In this document: piece by piece, positions 24,226 through 53,762 of the stretch
How positions within the stretch are numbered: the first letter of the stretch is position 1
How the letters are laid out: each line of letters starts with the position of its first letter
Source: a bacterium
GTDB lineage: Bacteria; Patescibacteriota; Patescibacteriia; Patescibacteriales; JAKAJF01
Length of the DNA: 64,000 bases
Direction of reading: 5' to 3'
NCBI GenBank assembly: GCA_021788015.1
Contig: JAJYLD010000005.1
Span: 349-64,348, forward strand
Program-made: the position numbers and the translations under genes
Notes under the pieces: generated by a model
Databases searched by the model: none
The model's input: only the letters and a program-made list of their open reading frames with translations
Told to the model about the DNA's origin: nothing

Positions 24226-24501
24226 ATGAAAATTACAAAAAAAGTGCAGGAAAAATATTTTAAAGCCATTCTTGAAGGCGAGAAAACATACGAAGTCCGT
24301 TTGGCGGATTTTGAATGCAAGCCGGGCGATGTTCTTGTTTTGCTTGAACAAAAAGACGGAACCCGGGAATTGACGGGAAGGAAAATGGAATGCGAAATTT
24401 CCATGGTTTTCAATACGAAAGATATGGAAAAATTTCACAGCAAAAATGAAATCGAAAAGTATGGATTATTGGTTATGGCCATAAAAAAGAAAGAAATATG
24501 A
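24226..24501 (+). CDS. ASCH/DUF3850-like PUA-fold protein
   Basis: KYFKAILEGEKTYEVRLADF...GD.L.L is typical of ASCH/DUF3850. The stop TGA lies in the ATGA at 24498-24501. Confidence 0.6.
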   Translation: MKITKKVQEKYFKAILEGEKTYEVRLADFECKPGDVLVLLEQKDGTRELTGRKMECEISMVFNTKDMEKFHSKNEIEKYGLLVMAIKKKEI

Positions 24502-24623
24502 ATCCCGTTAGAAGCCGCAATCGCTTTCGGCGGAGAATAAATAAAACGGAGTTTAAAAAATTGTAATTTACGCGGATGTGCAATCAAATATTCTTGATCG
24601 CGATCTGCTTCTAACGGGATGAA
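24498..24623 (+). repeat. Family A start-codon hairpin element, copy 1
   Basis: ATGAA+TCCCGTTAGAAGCCGCAATCGC ... GATCGCGATCTGCTTCTAACGGGATGAA. Perfect 14-bp IR at 24502-15/24607-20. The terminal AT is part of ATG 24619. Confidence 0.9.
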
Positions 24624-25155
24624 ACATATTTACATACCCGGTTTTCTCGATACGGCGAAATACAGAAAAATGATCCCGGGTTTAGAAATCTGGCTTGAAG
24701 ATATCGATCCAAAAGAAAAGATTGAAACCGAATATGTAGTCGGGCATAGCATGGGAGCCGATTTCGCCTTGATCAATTGGGACAAAAACAGAAATACAAA
24801 ATTGATTCTTTCCAATCCGATTTTGTTAAAAAGAAATTTTTTTGCATGGGTGGCGAGATGGGCGAAATATTTATTTACGGCGGAAGAAAAGTTTCCGATC
24901 GGCAGATGGCCGACTTTACTTCATCCTGTTCTTGCGATAAAAAGACTTTTTCAATTGATGAATCAAGATTTTGACAAAATTCTTTCCGAAGTTCCCAGAG
25001 GACATATAATTATCGTGAGAGGCAAAGAAGACAAATATTTATGCTGCGAAGAAACGGCCGAATTTATAAAAAATAAAGGCGTAAATTTGATTGAAGTAGA
25101 TGGAGCGAGCCATGATTGGGAAGACGTAAAAAATGAAGTTTTAAAGATTTTATGA
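24619..25155 (+). CDS. Alpha/beta hydrolase (serine hydrolase)
   Basis: GHSMG nucleophile elbow. C-terminal D...H (ASHDWE). Confidence 0.65.
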   Translation: MKHIYIPGFLDTAKYRKMIPGLEIWLEDIDPKEKIETEYVVGHSMGADFALINWDKNRNTKLILSNPILLKRNFFAWVARWAKYLFTAEEKFPIGRWPTLLHPVLAIKRLFQLMNQDFDKILSEVPRGHIIIVRGKEDKYLCCEETAEFIKNKGVNLIEVDGASHDWEDVKNEVLKIL

Positions 25156-39198: not shown

Positions 39199-39324
39199 AT
39201 GTATCCCGTTAGAAGCCGCGATCGCTTCGACAGGAAAAACATAAACAAGCAAAAAATCTAATTAATTATATTACACAGATCGAAATCAATATTCTTGATC
39301 GCGATCTGATTCTAATGGGATGTA
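39199..39324 (+). repeat. Family A start-codon hairpin element, copy 2
   Basis: ATGTA+TCCCGTTAGAAGCCGCGATCGC ... GATCGCGATCTGATTCTAATGGGATGTA. The terminal ATG is the start of 39320. Confidence 0.9.
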
Positions 39325-39964
39325 CATAACATGGTTGGGACAATCCTGCCTTAAACTTTCCGATAAAACCGGCTCCGATGCCGTAACTTTAATCACCGAT
39401 CCGTTTGACAAACAAATCGGCCTTCCGGTTCCGCATGTCGAAGCCGATATCGTAACCATAAGCCATGGTCATTTTGACCATAACAACAAAGACGCCGTGC
39501 GAGGCAACCCTTTTGTAATAGATGCGGCGGGCGAATACGACGTGAAGGGAGTGCAAATCGTTGGGATAGATTCCTATCACGATGACAAAGAAGGGAAAGA
39601 GCGGGGCAAAAATGTAATTTATCGCATAACCATGGACGATCTTTCCGTCGTTCATTTGGGCGATCTGGGTCACACGCTCGATGATAAGCAGCTTGAAAAA
39701 ATAAACGGCACGGATATTTTATTTATTCCTGTCGGCGGCGTGTATACCATCGACGCAAGAAGGGCGGTCGAAGTGATAGCGCAAATCGAACCGAGAATCG
39801 TCATGCCCATGCACTATAAAATCAAAGATTTGAAAGTAGAGCTCGATGGAGTCGATAAATTTATAAAAGAAATCGGGTTGACGCCGAAATATGAAGATAA
39901 ATTTAAAATTTCGAAAAAAGATTTGCCGCAGGAAGAGATGGAACTGGTGATACTAAACCTGTAA
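39320..39964 (+). CDS. Metallo-beta-lactamase-fold hydrolase (UPF0173-like)
   Basis: ITWLGQSC...SHGHFDHN...HLGDLGH. Confidence 0.75.
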   Translation: MYITWLGQSCLKLSDKTGSDAVTLITDPFDKQIGLPVPHVEADIVTISHGHFDHNNKDAVRGNPFVIDAAGEYDVKGVQIVGIDSYHDDKEGKERGKNVIYRITMDDLSVVHLGDLGHTLDDKQLEKINGTDILFIPVGGVYTIDARRAVEVIAQIEPRIVMPMHYKIKDLKVELDGVDKFIKEIGLTPKYEDKFKISKKDLPQEEMELVILNL

Positions 39965-39999: not shown

Positions 40000-40106
40000 A
40001 TTAATCCCGTTAGATATCCTGATTATTCAAATGTAAATCGGTATGCCTGATGGGATCGTAAAAAAATTTTTATGTCAACAAAACAACAAATATCTAACGG
40101 GATGAA
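40000..40106 (+). repeat. Family A element, divergent short copy 3
   Basis: Perfect 14-bp IR ATCCCGTTAGATAT (40004-17) / ATATCTAACGGGAT (40090-103). The terminal ATG at 40102 starts a signal peptide. Confidence 0.8.
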
Positions 40107-45713: not shown

Positions 45714-45955
45714 ACGAATCCCGTTAGGAGCAGCGATCGTTTTTTACGGGAGCGGACAAAAACATAGAATAAAAAACCATAATTTACGCAAATGCGCAAT
45801 TTAAGATTTTGATCGCGATCCCGATACCGCAAATCCTATCGGATTCGGCCACGGGACAAGTTCTGCCGCGCAAAACTTATTATTAACCACGTCTCGCCCC
45901 CGTAGTCACCGAATTTACGAGGTGCACTACAGGGGTCTGCTTTTAACGGAATGAA
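45714..45955 (+). repeat. Family A element, long copy 4, with an extra ~117-nt structured module (45821-45937)
   Basis: The 5' arm is aatcccgttaggagcagcgatcg. The module is ATCCCGATACC...CCCCGTAGTCACCgaatttacgaGGTGcACTACaGGGGTC. The 3' arm TGCTTTTAACGGAATGAA ends in ATG 45951. Confidence 0.85.
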
Positions 45956-46325
45956 TAAAAAATATAAAGTCCTTGTTGTCGAAGATGACGATCTCATCAG
46001 TTCGATGTACAAAATCAAATTTGAAAACGAAGGGTTCGAAGTAACCGTTGCCGGAAACGGCGCCGAGGGATTGGATAACGCCAAAAAGGGAGACTTTGAT
46101 TTAATTCTTCTGGATGTAATTTTGCCGCAATTGGACGGATTTTCGATTTTGTCGGAAATAAAAAAGGACAAAAAAGCGAAAGACATACCCGTAATCATGC
46201 TGACCAATCTCGGAACGGACGAAGATATTCAGAAGGGGAAAAATTTGGGAGCGATTGACTATATAATCAAATCGAGCTTTACGCCTTCGCAAGTGAGCGA
46301 GAAAATTAAGACTTACTTAAAGTAA
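45951..46325 (+). CDS. Receiver-only response regulator (CheY-like)
   Basis: VEDD, the phospho-acceptor D in LILLDVILP, and T/K motifs (MLTNLG, IIKS). Confidence 0.9.
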   Translation: MNKKYKVLVVEDDDLISSMYKIKFENEGFEVTVAGNGAEGLDNAKKGDFDLILLDVILPQLDGFSILSEIKKDKKAKDIPVIMLTNLGTDEDIQKGKNLGAIDYIIKSSFTPSQVSEKIKTYLK

Positions 46326-48521: not shown

Positions 48522-48648
48522 ATGAATCCCGTTAGAAGCCGCGATCGCTTTTAGGGGGAGTCAAAAAACAAAAATAAAAAAATAAATAATTTTAAAATAT
48601 CATGCAGATCAAAAATTTTTGATCGCGATCTGCTTCTAACGGGATGAA
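48522..48648 (+). repeat. Family A start-codon hairpin element, copy 5
   Basis: ATGAA+TCCCGTTAGAAGCCGCGATCGC ... GATCGCGATCTGCTTCTAACGGGATGAA. The terminal ATG 48644 opens the Ile-rich leader ORF. Confidence 0.9.
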
Positions 48649-48721
48649 TTTATTTCAAAGCGCGAAAATTATTTCGATTATTGAGATCATCATTATTGAT
48701 GACCATTTTTGCGCGCTTTGA
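48644..48721 (+). promoter_or_regulatory. Ile-rich leader peptide ORF (25 codons, 8 Ile)
   Basis: MNLFQSAKIISIIEIIIIDDHFCAL. The stop lies inside the candidate antiterminator strand 48714-48726. Confidence 0.7.
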
Positions 48722-48747
48722 AGACGAAAACATAAAAATAAAAGGAG

Positions 48748-48775
48748 CCGTCTTCGAAGCGAGAAGACGGTTTTT
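48748..48775 (+). terminator. Attenuator terminator upstream of cimA
   Basis: CCGTCTTC gaagcga GAAGACGG plus TTTTT. The 5' arm can alternatively pair 13 bp with 48714-48726. Confidence 0.75.
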
Positions 48776-48824
48776 GTATGGATCTTTCAAAACAAAATCG
48801 TTAGAAGATAAAGGAGAACATGAG

Positions 48825-50396
48825 ATGACCGAAATTTATGACACGACTCTTAGGGACGGGGCGCAGACTGAAAATATTTCTTTTTCAGTCCGGGATAAAC
48901 TGAAAATCGCTTGGCGTCTTAAGGAATTCGGCATTCCTTTTGTCGAAGGCGGTTGGCCGAGCGCGAATCCGAAAGACACGGAATTTTTCCAAAAAGCGGT
49001 CGCAACGGATTTAAAAGATGTTTTAGTCGCGTTTGGGAGCACTTTTCATCCGAAGTCGAGAAACGCCGGCGACGACAAGGGGTTGAAAGCTTTGATTCTG
49101 AGTGGAGCGAAGGCGGTTGCAATTTTCGGAAAGACATGGGATTTTCACGTCAGCGACGCTTTGAGAATACCGCTTGAGGAAAATCTTAGAATCATTTTCG
49201 AGTCGGTGAAGTTTTTAAAAAGCCGGCTTGAAAAAGTTTTCTTCGACGCCGAGCATTTCTTCGATGGCTATAAAGCGAATCCGGGATATGCGCTGGAATG
49301 TCTCAAGGCCGCGGAACGGGCGGGAGCGGACACGATCATTCTTTGCGATACCAACGGCGGCGCCCTTCCGGCTGAAGTCGAATCCGTTTTTCGAGACATA
49401 AAGAGAGTCGGCGTTTCGGTCGCTTTGGGCATTCACGCCCATAACGACTGCGAGTTGGCGGTTGCCAATTCTTTGGCCGCGGTAAAAGCCGGCGCCATCC
49501 AGGTGCAAGGCACCATCAACGGTCTCGGAGAAAGGTGCGGTAACGCGAATCTCGTTTCGATAATCCCCACGCTTGAACTCAAACTCGGTGAAAAATGCCT
49601 GCCGCCCGAGAAATTGAACGAACTTCGCGAAACCTCCCTTTTTATAAGTGAAGTTGCCAATGTCGCGCATTCAAAAAGGCAAGCTTATGTCGGTGACAGC
49701 GCCTTTGCGCATAAGGCGGGAATGCATGTAAGCGCGGTGAATCGCAACCCCGAAACTTACGAGCATATTAATCCCGCTTCGGTCGGCAACAAGCGCAGAA
49801 TACTCGTCTCGGATTTATCCGGTAGAAGCAATATCTTGCGCAAGGCCGGAGAAATCGGGATGAAATTGGAGGAAAAATCTCCGCGCGTGCAAGCGATTCT
49901 CGATGAAATCAAGTCGCTGGAAAACCAGGGTTACGCGTTTGAGGCGGCGGACGCTTCTTTCGAGCTTTTGGTCAAAAAAGCGTTTGGCTTTTATCAACCT
50001 TTCTTCGAACTCGTCAGCTCCAGGATCGTTAATTCAAAGAACGGCGGACTTTCCCGGAATGAAGCGACAGTAATGCTTCGAGTCGGGGAGCGCGAGGAGC
50101 ATACCGCCGGAAAAGGAGACGGCCCTATCAATGCCGTTGACGAGGCGTTAAGAAAAGCTCTCGAACGTTATTACCCGATTCTCAAAAAGGTCAGACTCGT
50201 AGACTATAAAGTCACCGTGCTTTCCGAAATTGAAGGCACGTCGGCAAAGGTTCGAGTTTTGATAGAATCGGAAAGCGACGGAGAAAGATGGACCACAATC
50301 GGCGTTTCCACCGATGTCATCGAAGCGTCCCGCCAGGCCTTGATCGACGGAATAGAATATTTTCTTCTTAAAAAAGATGTGAAAGCCCTAATTTAA
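48825..50396 (+). CDS. cimA: Citramalate synthase-like (LeuA/CimA family with C-terminal regulatory domain)
   Basis: IYDTTLRDGAQTENISFSVRDKL.IA..L.EFG..FVEGGWPSANPKD.EFF matches the CimA-type N-terminus as recalled. AAGGAG 8 nt before ATG 48825. Confidence 0.65.
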   Translation: MTEIYDTTLRDGAQTENISFSVRDKLKIAWRLKEFGIPFVEGGWPSANPKDTEFFQKAVATDLKDVLVAFGSTFHPKSRNAGDDKGLKALILSGAKAVAIFGKTWDFHVSDALRIPLEENLRIIFESVKFLKSRLEKVFFDAEHFFDGYKANPGYALECLKAAERAGADTIILCDTNGGALPAEVESVFRDIKRVGVSVALGIHAHNDCELAVANSLAAVKAGAIQVQGTINGLGERCGNANLVSIIPTLELKLGEKCLPPEKLNELRETSLFISEVANVAHSKRQAYVGDSAFAHKAGMHVSAVNRNPETYEHINPASVGNKRRILVSDLSGRSNILRKAGEIGMKLEEKSPRVQAILDEIKSLENQGYAFEAADASFELLVKKAFGFYQPFFELVSSRIVNSKNGGLSRNEATVMLRVGEREEHTAGKGDGPINAVDEALRKALERYYPILKKVRLVDYKVTVLSEIEGTSAKVRVLIESESDGERWTTIGVSTDVIEASRQALIDGIEYFLLKKDVKALI

Positions 50397-50418
50397 TTAG
50401 GGCTTGTTTTTTTTCGCA
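50383..50418 (+). terminator. Terminator after cimA
   Basis: AAGCCCTAATT ta ATTAGGGCTT plus T-run. The stop codon lies inside the stem. Confidence 0.75.
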
Positions 50419-50440
50419 AGTATGATACAATGTGGTCATT

Positions 50441-50521
50441 ATGAGACAAGCCGCACAAAATTTACTACTCGCTTTGTTGCTTTTATCGCCTCGTCGGGTG
50501 GCTTGTTTTCATGCGTTTTAA
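50441..50521 (+). promoter_or_regulatory. Leu-rich leader peptide ORF (26 codons, 7 Leu)
   Basis: MRQAAQNLLLALLLLSPRRVACFHAF, using TTA CTA CTC .. TTG TTG CTT TTA. Confidence 0.65.
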
Positions 50522-50548
50522 GAAAATAGATAAAAATAAAACAGCAAG

Positions 50549-50570
50549 ACCGCCCCAAAAGGCGGTTTTT
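50549..50570 (+). terminator. Attenuator terminator upstream of leuA
   Basis: ACCGCC ccaaaa GGCGGT plus TTTT, 48 nt before ATG 50618. Confidence 0.65.
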
Positions 50571-50617
50571 AAATTGTATAGACCTTTTGAAATTTGAAAA
50601 TTGACAAGGAGGGCGCG

Positions 50618-52225
50618 ATGAATAATTTGATTTTGAACGACGTATCTTTGCGGGAGTCCGGTCAGGTCGAGGGAGGAATGATGAATCCCTCGGATCAAAT
50701 TCGGTATGTTCAGTATCTGCTCGAAGGAGGAATAAATCGAATAGAGATCGGTTTTCCGGGAAGTTCGGAAGAGCAGAAAAGGCAGTGCCAAAGAATAGCG
50801 GAACATGTTCACAAATGGGATGGTACAAAACCGAATCTTTCCGGATTGGCCAGGGCGCACAAAAATGACATCCTGGCGGTCAAAGAAGCGGGCTGCGATA
50901 TGTGCCATATTTACATTCCGGCAAGCGACGAGTTGATGTTGGCCCAATTTCACGCGGAGAAATACGGAACCACAAAAGACGAGAAGCGGAAGCGCATCAC
51001 CGAGACTGCAAAAGAGGCGATCGTTTTTGCCAAATCTCTCGGATTCGCCCATATCGAATATTCTCCGGAAGACGCGGCAAGGGCCGGCAAAGAATTTTTA
51101 AGCTTTCTAGTCCAAGAAGTCGTTGAAGTGGGAGCGGATATCGTAAACATTCCGGACACCACGGGGCTGCGTATCGGCTCGGAATTCGGCGACCTCATCG
51201 CCTATCTCTTCGCCAATGTGGCCGACATAAACAGATCCACGATTTCGGTCCATTGCCATAATGATAGCGATCACTCGACCCATAACGCTCTTCAAGCCGT
51301 TCTGGCGGGAGCAAGACAAGTCGAAGGAGCCTTTTACGGACTGGGAGAACGCAGTGGAATGACAAAATTCGAAGCCCTGCTGATGAACATAAACACAAGA
51401 AGAGATATTTTTAAAAACGTTGAAACAGATTTCGACAAAAGTGTTTGCGTTAAGATCGTCAATTTCGTGGGGCAAGTCTTGGGCATGCCGGTTCCCAGAC
51501 ATTGGGTTGTGGCGGGATCCCAGAATGGCATTGTCAGTTCTGGAACGCATCAGGCGATCGAAGCGCGGGCGGAAGAGCAGGGAAAGGAAAGTCCGTATTA
51601 CAGCTGGAACCCCGGTGAGTACGGGCACAAAGGGGTCGAAGTGGTCGTAACTCAATCTTCGGGTAAGGCCGGTTTGAAAAAAAGACTCGAAAAACTTGGC
51701 TATAATGTTTCCGATATTCAACTCGCAAAAATAAGCGAGCGAGTAAAACAAATTTCGGAAGCAAAATCCGGCACGGCTCTCAAAGATGTCGAGCTTACCG
51801 CCATCGTCCAAGAAGCGATAACGGAAATTCCTTTCCCCATTATGATTAAAAGATGCCAAACCACGGGTGGAAAAGGAACGATCCCGAGCGCGACGGTTGT
51901 TCTCGAAGCGGACAGTCGAATATTTACCGATATCGCCACCGGAGACGGACCTTTCGACGCCGTTATGAAGGCGGTGAAAAGCGCGATCGGAAAAGCGTAT
52001 CCGGAAGTTAAAGAAGCGCAAATTTCTCTTGTCCATTGGCACGCCTCTGCGTTAACTCCGGGCACTAATGCGGTAGCCGACGCTTACGCCCAGATCAAGG
52101 TTGTAAACGGAGGAGATCGAATTTTCTCCGGGAAAGGCGCCGATCCCGACACTATTCAGGCTTCGGCGCAAGCCTTCGCCAATTGTTTCAGTTGGTATCT
52201 GGCCTCCATCAATCAAGCGGATTAA
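50618..52225 (+). CDS. leuA: 2-isopropylmalate synthase-like (LeuA family)
   Basis: DVSLRESGQ (DRE-TIM), HCHNDSDH, C-terminal LeuA dimer/regulatory-like domain. AAGGAGGG SD. Confidence 0.6.
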   Translation: MNNLILNDVSLRESGQVEGGMMNPSDQIRYVQYLLEGGINRIEIGFPGSSEEQKRQCQRIAEHVHKWDGTKPNLSGLARAHKNDILAVKEAGCDMCHIYIPASDELMLAQFHAEKYGTTKDEKRKRITETAKEAIVFAKSLGFAHIEYSPEDAARAGKEFLSFLVQEVVEVGADIVNIPDTTGLRIGSEFGDLIAYLFANVADINRSTISVHCHNDSDHSTHNALQAVLAGARQVEGAFYGLGERSGMTKFEALLMNINTRRDIFKNVETDFDKSVCVKIVNFVGQVLGMPVPRHWVVAGSQNGIVSSGTHQAIEARAEEQGKESPYYSWNPGEYGHKGVEVVVTQSSGKAGLKKRLEKLGYNVSDIQLAKISERVKQISEAKSGTALKDVELTAIVQEAITEIPFPIMIKRCQTTGGKGTIPSATVVLEADSRIFTDIATGDGPFDAVMKAVKSAIGKAYPEVKEAQISLVHWHASALTPGTNAVADAYAQIKVVNGGDRIFSGKGADPDTIQASAQAFANCFSWYLASINQAD

Positions 52226-52880: not shown

Positions 52881-52911
52881 TTTTTTAATATTTGTTAGAA
52901 TGTAAGCAGAT

Positions 52912-53115
52912 ATGAATCCCGTTAGAAGCCGCGATCGCTTCAACGGGAGTAAAAATTAAAATATAATATTCGCAGAGTGATCCCGATACCACCAATCCTA
53001 TCGGATTTGGCTATGGGACAAGTCCATTGCAAGTAATTTATTATTAATTACGCCTCGCCCCGTAGTCACCGAGTTTACGAGGTGCACTACCGGGGTCTGC
53101 TTCTAACGGGATGAA
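52912..53115 (+). repeat. Family A element, long copy 6, with the structured module (52982-53097)
   Basis: ATGAA+TCCCGTTAGAAGCCGCGATCGC; the module is homologous to 45821-45937; the 3' arm is TGCTTCTAACGGGATGAA. The terminal ATG 53111 opens a 26-codon ORF. Confidence 0.9.
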
Positions 53116-53191
53116 AAGATACTGTGCACAAATGAATAATAACAATAATAACTGGCTCAAGACCGGTTTCTTTTCATGTGTTAAAAAGTAA
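53111..53191 (+). promoter_or_regulatory. Candidate leader peptide with six consecutive Asn codons
   Basis: MKRYCAQMNNNNNNWLKTGFFSCVKK. GACCGGTT (53161-68) inside the ORF is the exact complement of the terminator 5' arm AACCGGTC (53214-21). Confidence 0.4.
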
Positions 53192-53213
53192 GTTAAAAAA
53201 TCACATAAAAAAG

Positions 53214-53242
53214 AACCGGTCGGGCAAAAGGCCGGTTTTTTT
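53214..53242 (+). terminator. Terminator-like hairpin between the Asn-run ORF and the 57-aa gene
   Basis: AACCGGTC gggcaaaa GGCCGGTT plus T7. Confidence 0.6.
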
Positions 53243-53302
53243 GTTTGATCTTTTGGAAAAAAGTTGGGAAATTTTATAAACCGTTTTTTAAAGGAGGGCG
53301 TC

Positions 53303-53476
53303 ATGACGGTAAGAACAGTTAAAGTCAGGGACGAGTTAACCGGACAGAAGGTAGTGGCCAGTATTGAAGAAGTGGGCGGAAGGAGACTTTTGGTTCTGCC
53401 CGGACTTAGGAAAGTGGAACAGCCATTTCCTCCGAAAGAGGAGCCAGCTAAACCGGAAGACGAGCCAAGCAACTAG
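53303..53476 (+). CDS. 57-aa protein (hypothetical)
   Basis: AAAGGAGGG SD 4 nt before the ATG. Terminator GGCAAGCaaaaacaGCTTGCC plus T-run at 53476-53506. Confidence 0.5.
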   Translation: MTVRTVKVRDELTGQKVVASIEEVGGRRLLVLPGLRKVEQPFPPKEEPAKPEDEPSN

Positions 53477-53517
53477 GCAAGCAAAAACAGCTTGCCTTTT
53501 TTATTTGCGGAGCACGA

Positions 53518-53581: not shown

Positions 53582-53762
53582 CGGAGTATAGTATAAGTGG
53601 CAGTACGCGCCCGCTTGCTCCGTTACTCAATTACCGGGGTGTAGTATAACGGTAGTACGCGAGCATGGGGTGCTTGTAGCCGGGGTTCAATTCCCCGCAC
53701 CCCGAAAGATGAGTAACGGGGTGAAGGCGGGGGTAGTTCCGGTTCGATTCCGGATACTCCGA
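53582..53762 (+). ncRNA. tRNA-shaped outer gene whose anticodon arm is replaced by a long helix carrying an embedded tRNA-Pro
   Basis: Acceptor CGGAGTA/TACTCCG plus A73. D arm GTAT-AAGTGGCA-GTAC. T arm TCCGG-TTCGATT-CCGGA. Helix CCGTTACTCA (53620-29)/TGAGTAACGG (53710-19) is extendable to about 15 bp and stacks on CCCGC/GCGGG. No 7-nt anticodon loop. Confidence 0.5.
53635..53705 (+). tRNA. tRNA-Pro (anticodon GGG), CCA not encoded
   Basis: Manual cloverleaf: CGGGGTG TA GTAT AACGGTA GTAC G CGAGC AT-GGG-GT GCTTG TAGC CGGGG TTCAATT CCCCG CACCCCG A. C1:G72, A73 and G37 fit Pro identity. Confidence 0.85.

Follow-up and report, generated by a model that had tools for sequence, protein, structure and literature searches.

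Start-associated repeats and mobile elements of bacteria

The REP2 repeats of Neisseria and the IR-A and IR-B repeats of Borrelia lie directly upstream of unrelated genes, and their 3' end provides the ATG which is used by the gene, along with 5'-UTR and RBS-like sequence (PMC3184786). They bring a promoter, a ribosome-binding site and the ATG, and have no terminal inverted repeats (TIRs) and no known target duplication or mode of spread (PMC3184786). The palindromic elements of Rickettsia (RPE; Ogata et al. 2000 as reviewed) are located in frame inside open reading frames (ORFs) and are translated with the host protein (PMC10969869). The element described here is present in six copies (c1 to c6) in a stretch of 64,000 nucleotides from a bacterium of the Patescibacteria, or candidate phyla radiation (CPR) (contig JAJYLD010000005.1 of assembly GCA_021788015.1, positions 349 to 64,348; this whole stretch is called the window below). 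It probably belongs to a family of non-autonomous DNA transposons which is specific to the CPR and widespread among them, inserts at start codons, and is made transparent to translation by termination-reinitiation and melting of its hairpin.

Like REP2 and IR-A/B, the element ends in the ATG of a gene; unlike them, it has TIRs, duplicates 5 bp of its target and takes the ATG from that target. Neither consensus scans nor the family alignment demonstrate a promoter inside the element, which is another difference from REP2 and IR-A/B. As with the RPE, it is a palindromic mobile element of reduced genomes which seems to survive by being compatible with the translation of the host gene, but it sits at codons 1-2, stops usually close it, and the N-terminus of the host protein stays as it is in element-free orthologues.

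The element has much in common with the MITEs of bacteria (miniature transposable elements with inverted repeats), such as Correia/NEMIS of Neisseria, RUP, Nezha and ERIC: it is small and transposase-free, its TIRs form a hairpin, it is flanked by a target duplication, its core is AT-rich and variable, and it occurs in many copies per genome (six in the 64-kb window, four near-identical ones in a single metagenome-assembled genome, MAG). Like the Correia elements, which carry promoters, it can bring expression signals for the neighbouring gene. However, Correia elements target TA and have 26-bp TIRs, whereas the duplication here is 5 bp, ATGNR, and the arm sequence is unrelated. Unlike known MITEs, the element is found in a single orientation at the start codons of essential genes, including those of a ribosomal-protein operon, it has a stop placed 4 nt ahead of the regenerated ATG as well as a mini-ORF through its arm, and it spans a radiation of candidate phyla with nearly invariant ends while no cognate insertion sequence (IS) is known.

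Conserved inverted units, a hairpin of about 100 nt, a variable spacer and the lack of an internal transposase are also found in repetitive extragenic palindromes (REPs) and their paired forms (REPINs), which are associated with RAYT transposases. REPINs are extragenic and RAYT-dependent, and have no target duplication; since the present element has one of 5 bp, it is no REPIN in the strict sense. An integron attC site (RYYYAAC...GTTRRRY) does not account for it either, because the order of the core is inverted (GTTAGAA...TTCTAAC) and the copies are scattered among housekeeping genes, with no cassette array. The spacing of stop, 4 nt and start is that of translational coupling, as at the ATGA overlaps of operons (c1 is itself in a former ATGA overlap), and a start codon held in a stem that an upstream ribosome would open recalls the unmasking of the replicase start by coat translation in MS2. 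Unlike in operon coupling, the putative device travels with a mobile element and has been placed in front of many genes that are not related to each other.

The genomes of Patescibacteria are tiny and gene-dense, and are thought to be poor in mobile DNA. A MITE which targets start codons with a constant polarity, has its own stop and mini-ORF and ranges over a whole phylum is apparently undescribed. The repeat was not recognised as a named family when it was first read from the DNA letters alone (hereafter the initial annotation), and this still stands: a full-text literature search (arm sequences; CPR taxa with MITE, REPIN or palindromic elements; MITE with start codon) found no description of the family. 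At gathering thresholds, the only Rfam match in the window is a tRNA-Pro, and c4 with its extra module gives nothing at E<=10.

The copies of the window and the family in the CPR

The six copies start at 24498, 39199, 40000, 45714, 48522 and 52912, all on the + strand. They had been listed in the initial annotation and were recovered by reading the intervals, by blastn and with a profile hidden Markov model (HMM) built on 51 family members, with no seventh copy in the 64 kb. The HMM hits exactly these six loci, and the + strand scores far above the - strand; the density is thus about one copy per 10 kb. When each copy is compared to the window by blastn, c1, c2, c4, c5 and c6 are joined along both arms, and c3 by its outermost 12-14 nt.

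The arms read ATCCCGTTAGAAGC(C)GCGATCGC on the 5' side and GATCGCGATCTGCTTCTAACGGGAT on the 3' side; the core between them is AT-rich and variable, and the ATG directly follows the 3' arm. For the family as a whole, the arm pair is CCCGTTAGAAGC/GCTTCTAACGGG. Written as strings, the ends of the element are TCCCGTTAGAAGC (5') and GCTTCTAACGGGA, the 3' arm closing in GCTTCTAACGGG and the body being TCCCG...CGGG. Each arm holds a small palindrome of its own, GCGATCGC and GATCGCGATC. The 14-bp TIR that had been reported as perfect in c1 is so in c5 and c6 as well; in c3 its sequence is changed yet complementary, as had also been noticed (CCCGTTAGATATC/GATATCTAACGGG), and it is slightly degraded in c2 and c4. 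The arms of all copies have 12-14 bp of perfect or near-perfect pairing, which extends to about 20 bp. The predicted RNA folds consist of 14 bp, a small internal loop and about 6 bp, with z values of -3.2 to -6.2 relative to shuffled sequences, and the AU of the gene's AUG falls inside this predicted stem of 14-20 bp. The six copies of the window are old and partly degenerate.

The wider family was collected with one 14-mer, ATCCCGTTAGAAGC, which includes the AT beside CCCG, in a database with one genome per species (596 Gb). The scan gave at least 116 loci, and the figures on the wider family refer to the matches listed. Every CPR match has a partner arm 30-300 nt away, and among the matches listed about 75 CPR loci, which belong to more than 12 candidate phyla, have paired-arm hairpins of 50-240 nt; the hosts include Saccharibacteria and Nomura-, Pacei-, Levyi-, Moran-, Kerfeld-, Jorgensen-, Kaiser-, Zambryski-, Yanofsky-, Sungii-, Lipton- and Campbellbacteria. 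Paired arms are also present in a few MAGs that bear the labels Omnitrophota, Planctomycetota or Gammaproteobacteria. On the contrary, no partner arm is present in the approximately 40 non-CPR matches listed, which are unpaired chance hits; thousands of occurrences of the 14-mer are expected by chance in 596 Gb. The arms being paired across the CPR and unpaired elsewhere, the element is Patescibacteria-wide and is not an oddity of the genome of the window. The size is usually about 110-120 nt, but it is 50-80 nt in short forms and 190-240 nt in long ones, and the ends are near-invariant across candidate phyla. A phage vector was also considered and discarded: 83 viral contigs match the 14-mer, none of them with a partner arm.

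Target duplication and empty sites

The element is mobile. The MAG FK_Sedi_B_Bin.322 has four near-identical copies of 110 nt, three of which occupy the exact start codons of rpmC (L29), rplX (L24) and adk, all inside the ribosomal-protein operon, with ATGAA flanks; the fourth is flanked by ATGCG. In relatives whose L24 proteins are 91% and 82% identical, the L16/L29, L14/L24 and SecY/adk junctions are empty and compact, with a single ATGAA. The L29, L24 and adk junctions are thus filled in locus L058 (JAMCZC010000036.1) and empty in loci L124 and L126. At the L16/L29 junction, the empty site of L126 reads ...caaaggaagaaaactaga ATGAA aacaaaag and the filled site of L058 reads ...caaaggaagagaattaa ATGAA(TCCCG...CGGG)ATGAA aactaaag, both flanks being alignable. 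It follows that what is duplicated is ATGNR, the 5 nt with which the ORF begins, and that the element itself is TCCCG...CGGG.

The flanking repeat covaries among loci. Over about 70 copies, it is ATGAA in 40, ATGGA in 11, ATGAG in 6, ATGCG in 5, ATGCA in 3 and ATGTA in 2. Position 5 is a purine in 97% of the copies, compared to 54% of control gene starts (which are crude ORF calls), and positions 6-9 are as in the controls, which fits a target of 5 bp, ATG-N-R. In the window, the repeats are ATGAA/ATGAA in c1, c5 and c6, ATGTA/ATGTA in c2, ACGAA/ATGAA in c4 and ATTAA/ATGAA in c3, in keeping with the direct repeats previously described for four copies. More generally, the 5' copy of the repeat is often decayed (ACG, GTG, TTG) or lost while the 3' copy is kept, as expected if only the 3' copy is under selection. 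One reading offered in the initial annotation, that of a MITE-like element with a 4-5 bp duplication which targets ATGAA at gene starts, is therefore borne out by the filled and empty sites in relatives and by the covarying repeat, and the empty ATGAA junctions that it called for exist at L29, L24 and adk. For the copies of the window, no empty site was found among the nearest relatives of the metallo-beta-lactamase (MBL)-fold hydrolase that follows c2: these are 72-74% identical and element-free, and their upstream flanks cannot be aligned. One of these element-free relatives starts with ATGTA, like c2.

Two further observations concern the junctions. In L058, the SD-containing (Shine-Dalgarno) spacers of about 18 nt which precede L24 and adk in L124 and L126 are missing, and only 1 nt separates the stop of the upstream gene from the 5' ATG of L24; a secondary compaction after insertion may account for this. 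Tandem pairs of elements are found in three loci (L012, L071 and L085), with a common ATGA(A) junction (...CGGGATGAATCCCG...), as if a second copy had entered the duplicated start codon of the first.

Polarity and position at gene starts

The two ends of the element are not equivalent. Of 97 paired-arm elements, 78 have an ATG behind one arm only and none behind both, while in 19 no arm is followed by it. The arms also differ by an independent internal asymmetry, a C after GAAGC in the 5' arm and an A at the opposite position in the 3' arm, and this asymmetry agrees with the side of the ATG in a ratio of 44:1.

The 3' ATG mostly opens ORFs of 100-700 codons. In the window it opens an ORF in all six copies, as had been claimed, with 178, 214, 302, 124, 25 and 26 codons from c1 to c6; the products are a hydrolase-like protein, an MBL-fold hydrolase, a secreted protein, a response regulator, an Ile-rich ORF and an Asn-run ORF. 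Pfam searches on the downstream genes give unrelated, largely essential functions, including six aminoacyl-tRNA synthetases, topoisomerase I, ClpP, trigger factor, RuvC, SSB, a release factor and prephenate dehydratase, which argues against a regulon. The orthologues of the MBL hydrolase are all 214 aa long and begin with MYITW or MIITW, with no element upstream, and in element-free genomes the starts of L24, L29 and Adk fall on the same residues. Judging from these orthologues, the 3' ATG is the true start of the gene where this can be checked.

The lack of an SD sequence between the stem and the ATG had been presented as a distinctive feature, but an SD-like 4-mer precedes only 7 of 49 long ORFs of the window and 12% of the gene starts in other CPR loci. 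In such an SD-poor lineage, the argument carries no weight. A TANNNT box peaks 6-7 nt ahead of many ATGs, both in the window and in the CPR loci (L001-L116); together with the SD-poor starts, this suggests that SD-independent or leaderless initiation may be widespread in these bacteria. Targeting of leaderless genes by the element was considered and rejected: -10-like boxes lie 6-7 nt before the 5' ATG in 28% of the cases, compared to 22% before control starts, and are thus not specific to the element.

Translation signals and a possible relay

The element carries a TAA exactly 4 nt ahead of the regenerated ATG, within the 3' arm GCTTCTAACGGG. Among the 55 copies of the full-size class (100-135 nt), 27 have an ORF of 10 codons or more which begins at an internal ATG and runs through the 3' arm to this TAA, compared to 5.8 +/- 2.4 when the interior is shuffled; none of 500 shuffles reaches 27, and the other two frames through the 3' arm are at chance level. 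The three frames of the 3' arm have different fates: one stops at the TAA, one gives GGA-TGA, overlapping the ATGA start, and one enters the gene in frame. The mini-ORF typically has 19-25 codons and ends in ...LIAICF or ...TATCF before the stop.

On the 5' side, the 5-bp duplication sets the frame of the left-behind ATG as ATG NRT CCC GTT AGA AGC, which dodges the TAG of the arm and spans the whole 5' arm. A central atATGA is conserved in the family alignment and is often a stop/start overlap between the ORF that begins at the 5' ATG (MNPVRSRDR...) and the mini-ORF. In about 10 copies, a single ORF goes from the 5' ATG through the entire element to a stop which adjoins the gene's ATG. Young copies have the 5' ATG and 12 codons to a TAA, a CGGGAG SD, 7 nt, an ATG and 19 codons to the TAA of the arm, 4 nt and the gene's ATG. 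No -35/-10 pair recurs at a constant place in consensus scans or in the family alignment, so that an internal sigma-70 promoter was discarded, and the central atATGA is, from its sequence context, better read as a start or a stop-start overlap than as part of a promoter.

These signals look like a device which keeps the host gene translated. The element inserts with a single orientation at the five bases that open an ORF (consensus ATG-N-purine) and duplicates them. Because these five bases are duplicated, the original start codon and the gene's own signals stay behind, and an identical start heads the intact gene. In the mechanism that is suggested by these signals, ribosomes would be loaded at the left-behind ATG by the signals of the host gene, or at the element's own SD. 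Translation of the ORF from the 5' ATG would proceed through the 5' arm and melt the hairpin that would otherwise hide the downstream AUG, and the mini-ORF (about 20 codons, with a GGGAG SD in the youngest copies) would carry ribosomes through the 3' arm to the TAA. They would stop there, beside the AUG of the gene, and reinitiate by translational coupling. Termination-reinitiation at closely spaced stops and starts and the unmasking of a structured start by upstream translation are both established mechanisms in bacteria.

The copies of the window fit such a relay to various extents. The fit is complete in c1, where the upstream stop overlaps the 5' ATG and is followed by an ORF across the 5' arm (ORF-A), a mini-ORF to the TAA, and the gene at 24619. 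In c3, a 20-codon ORF ends in a TGA which overlaps the ATG of the gene. Only ORF-A across the 5' arm is retained in c2, c5 and c6, and c4 has neither ORF-A nor a mini-ORF because its 5' start codon has decayed to ACG.

Several points weigh against a transposon with a built-in relay. About half of the copies, including c2, c4, c5 and c6, have no mini-ORF that reaches the TAA, and their genes are presumably expressed; the relay is therefore not obligatory. Since SD-less initiation is the norm in these genomes, ribosomes may also start independently at the 3' ATG. Part of the mini-ORF excess could be inherited from a master copy instead of being maintained by selection; the copies share descent, so that the shuffle statistics overstate their independence, and the family counts, which come from the matches listed for a single 14-mer seed, are a biased sample. 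The apparent duplication departs from 5 nt in some copies (about 6 with 4 nt, about 4 with 6-7 nt). As for the source of mobility, no autonomous element or transposase with these ends was found in about 600 kb of CPR flanks, and no arm pair more than 300 nt apart occurs in the approximately 75 CPR loci of 8 kb.

A stronger version of the transposon with a relay may be envisaged, although we regard it as rather doubtful. The insertion machinery itself would read ATG-N-purine at the 5' edge of an ORF, in one orientation, possibly through DNA states associated with transcription or translation, and the element would be an obligate translational relay cassette. If this were true, it would be the first case of a transposon family specialised for start codons, with ribosomal-protein genes among its sites, throughout a bacterial radiation.

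If the relay holds, the family shows how a transposon may colonise a genome with almost no intergenic space, by being invisible to translation, and it would supply natural, portable modules for translational coupling. It would also be a handle on the SD-poor, possibly leaderless initiation of the CPR. In practice, the 5' ATG and the mini-ORFs can mislead gene callers, which affects the predictions of start sites and small ORFs in CPR MAGs, and insertion polymorphisms could be used as strain markers.

Alternative explanations

The alternative which survives best, though it is unlikely, is a purely selfish MITE which inserts at any ATGNR. Only the insertions that regenerate an ORF would survive, the TAA and the mini-ORF would be accidental by-products of the terminal repeats and of an AT-rich core, and translation would start at the 3' ATG without an SD. 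Such starts are indeed the norm in these genomes, half of the copies do without a mini-ORF in the TAA frame, the degenerate copies c2, c4, c5 and c6 still precede conserved or plausible genes, and the arms have no wobble bias specific to the RNA strand. The location of the copies is more difficult to explain in this way. Outside the elements, the window contains 626 ATGNR sites in coding sequence, 163 in non-coding sequence away from called starts and 29 at gene starts. Given the 163 non-start and 29 start sites (a ratio of about 5:1), random insertion with coding hits removed should put only about 17% of the copies at starts, yet 4-6 of the 6 window copies and about 60-80% of the wider sample are at starts, always in a single orientation. 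The 44:1 polarity is not needed for regenerating an ORF either, the arms being nearly palindromic, and the mini-ORF excess is both large and specific to one frame (27 versus 5.8; 0/500). Lastly, an AUG held in a stem of 14-20 bp would not be available for independent initiation unless the stem were opened.

It is improbable that the element is a domesticated cis-regulatory RNA hairpin, in which the stem hides the start codon and expression is tied to upstream translation, temperature, RNase III or a stem-binding protein, as a control of phylum-wide extent. In its favour, the hairpins are predicted to be very stable and to enclose the AU of the AUG, arm conservation among candidate phyla is high, and compensatory double changes keep them paired (GC to AT in 8 copies, CG to TA in 9). 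However, conservation and covariation of the arms are equally expected of transposon ends. Outside the duplication position, arm mismatches are G.T in 19 cases and A.C in 18; there is thus no excess of G.U on the sense strand, and the complementarity of the arms could serve DNA transposition, RNA folding, or both. The genes downstream have housekeeping functions that are unrelated to each other, in close relatives these genes are free of the element, and Rfam has no match. The portable translation-control hairpin that was the second reading of the initial annotation has therefore fared in two ways: the translation signals which it implied are present (TAA 4 nt before the ATG, mini-ORF), whereas processing by RNase III and regulation are unsupported, with mismatches that are balanced between G.T and A.C.

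The conserved ends, the variable core, the length of about 100 nt, the small palindrome in each arm (GCGATCGC, GATCGCGATC) and the fact that no autonomous IS was found among the fetched CPR loci would all suit a REPIN-like element, made of two inverted REP-type units and mobilised as single-stranded DNA by a host HUH/Y1 (RAYT-like) enzyme and not by a DDE transposase. This is very improbable, because the 5-bp target duplication is clear and is matched by empty sites, and the chemistry of IS200/IS605-type and RAYT enzymes leaves none. Least credible of all is a bypass at the stage of initiation, in which a complex on the 5' AUG would hop across the base of the stem to the identical 3' AUGNR and skip the insert, as in the take-off and landing of phage T4 gene 60: matched codons stand at the two feet of one hairpin and genes presumably remain functional even where the coupling ORF is missing (c2, c4, c5, c6), but the identity is fully accounted for by the target duplication, decay of the 5' copy (ACG, GTG, TTG or none) is frequent and leaves the gene in place, the take-off codon is followed by a sense codon (AAT) and not by a stop, and there is no nascent peptide at that stage.

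Features of the individual copies

Copy c1 begins with the 5' duplication ATGAA (24498..24502, + strand), which holds the TGA stop (24499-24501) of the upstream ASCH-domain gene; the suggestion that it is an ATGA stop/start overlap that was split and duplicated is right. Its body (24503..24618, 116 nt, TCCCG...CGGG) has the 5' arm at about 24503-24524, the 3' arm at about 24596-24618 and the TAA at 24612-24614. ORF-A starts at the 5' ATG, crosses the 5' arm and encodes MNPVRSRNRFRRRINKTEFKKL before its stop (24498..24566, +); the internal mini-ORF (24576..24614, +), which encodes MCNQIFLIAICF, crosses the 3' arm and stops 4 nt ahead of the ATG of the host gene. This gene encodes a hydrolase-like protein of 178 aa (24619..25155, +) and opens with ATGAA, which is the duplication's 3' copy.

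Copy c2 (39199..39324, +) consists of ATGTA (39199-39203), a body (39204-39319) and ATGTA (39320-39324), with ORF-A at 39199-39261 (+). Its 3' arm is degraded (CTGATTCTAATGGG), and it is followed by the gene of the MBL-fold hydrolase (39320-39964, +). The short and diverged copy c3 (40000..40106, +) has a decayed 5' repeat, ATTAA (40000-40004), and a body at 40005-40101; its mini-ORF of 20 codons, MPDGIVKKFLCQQNNKYLTG (40043-40105, +), closes with a TGA that overlaps the ATG of the gene, which begins with ATGAA at 40102 (+) and encodes a secreted protein of 302 aa.

Copy c5 (48522..48648, +) has ATGAA (48522-48526), a body (48527-48643), ATGAA (48644-48648) and a short ORF-A, MNPVRSRDRF followed by a stop (48522-48554, +). 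The downstream ORF is an Ile-rich leader of 25 codons, MNLFQSAKIISIIEIIIIDDHFCAL (48644-48721, +), upstream of leuA/cimA-like genes. It is followed by a terminator-like hairpin (region 48644-48800) and by two tandem HMGL-like/LeuA_dimer genes (region 48681-52225). From its layout, this region looks like a leader-peptide attenuator of the isoleucine type, with the element at the start codon of the leader itself.

The two other copies, c4 and c6, are long forms. Copy c4 (45714..45955, +) has a decayed 5' repeat, ACGAA (45714-45718), a body at 45719-45950 and a host gene for a response regulator which begins with ATGAA at 45951 (45951-46325, +). Copy c6 (52912..53115, +) has ATGAA (52912-52916), a body (52917-53110), ATGAA (53111-53115) and ORF-A at 52912-52959 (+). 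A promoter-like site with an extended -10 ends at 52901, 11 nt ahead of its 5' ATG. The Asn-run ORF of 26 codons (53111-53191, +) is followed by a strong terminator at 53209-53242. Beyond this terminator lie an ORF of 57 aa, which starts at ATG 53304 with a textbook SD, AAAGGAGGG, and has no Pfam match, and the tRNA-Pro at 53635-53705 (the region after c6 was read at 53111-53477).

In c4, an extra module of about 115 nt (45821..45937, +) is located in the 3' arm between GATCGCGATC and TGCTTTTAACGG; c6 carries the same module at the same point of the 3' arm (52983..53097, +). The module is GC-richer, folds strongly and sits at one fixed point, between GATCGCGATC and TGCTTCTAACGGG. Five module sequences gave no covariation, and Rfam has no match for it. 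It is also present, at the same point, in a Parcubacteria genome (L100:1-115) and in six metagenome contigs (L211-L216), and the module-bearing elements outside the window precede three unrelated genes, including typA/bipA. The module may define a long-form subfamily, or be a nested element or a structured RNA.

The octamer GCGATCGC of the 5' arm is the HIP1 palindrome of cyanobacteria. There are 8 such sites in the window, compared to about 2 expected, 3 of which are within elements; the others are at 1775, 10401, 19526, 22718 and 42210. An explanation of the arms by cyanobacterial HIP1 was rejected, as the enrichment is mild, 3 of the 8 sites are inside elements and the lineage is CPR, not cyanobacterial.

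Other variants are seen in the wider family. In one subfamily (loci L011, L020, L024 and L035), the 5' junction is ACTTGT|CCCG, the 5' end being ACTTGTCCCG in place of the duplicated ATGNR; this end would pair with the AUG and lengthen the stem. At L061:7452-7482, a minimal hairpin of 31 nt is made of the two arms only and is followed by a T-run, like a terminator.

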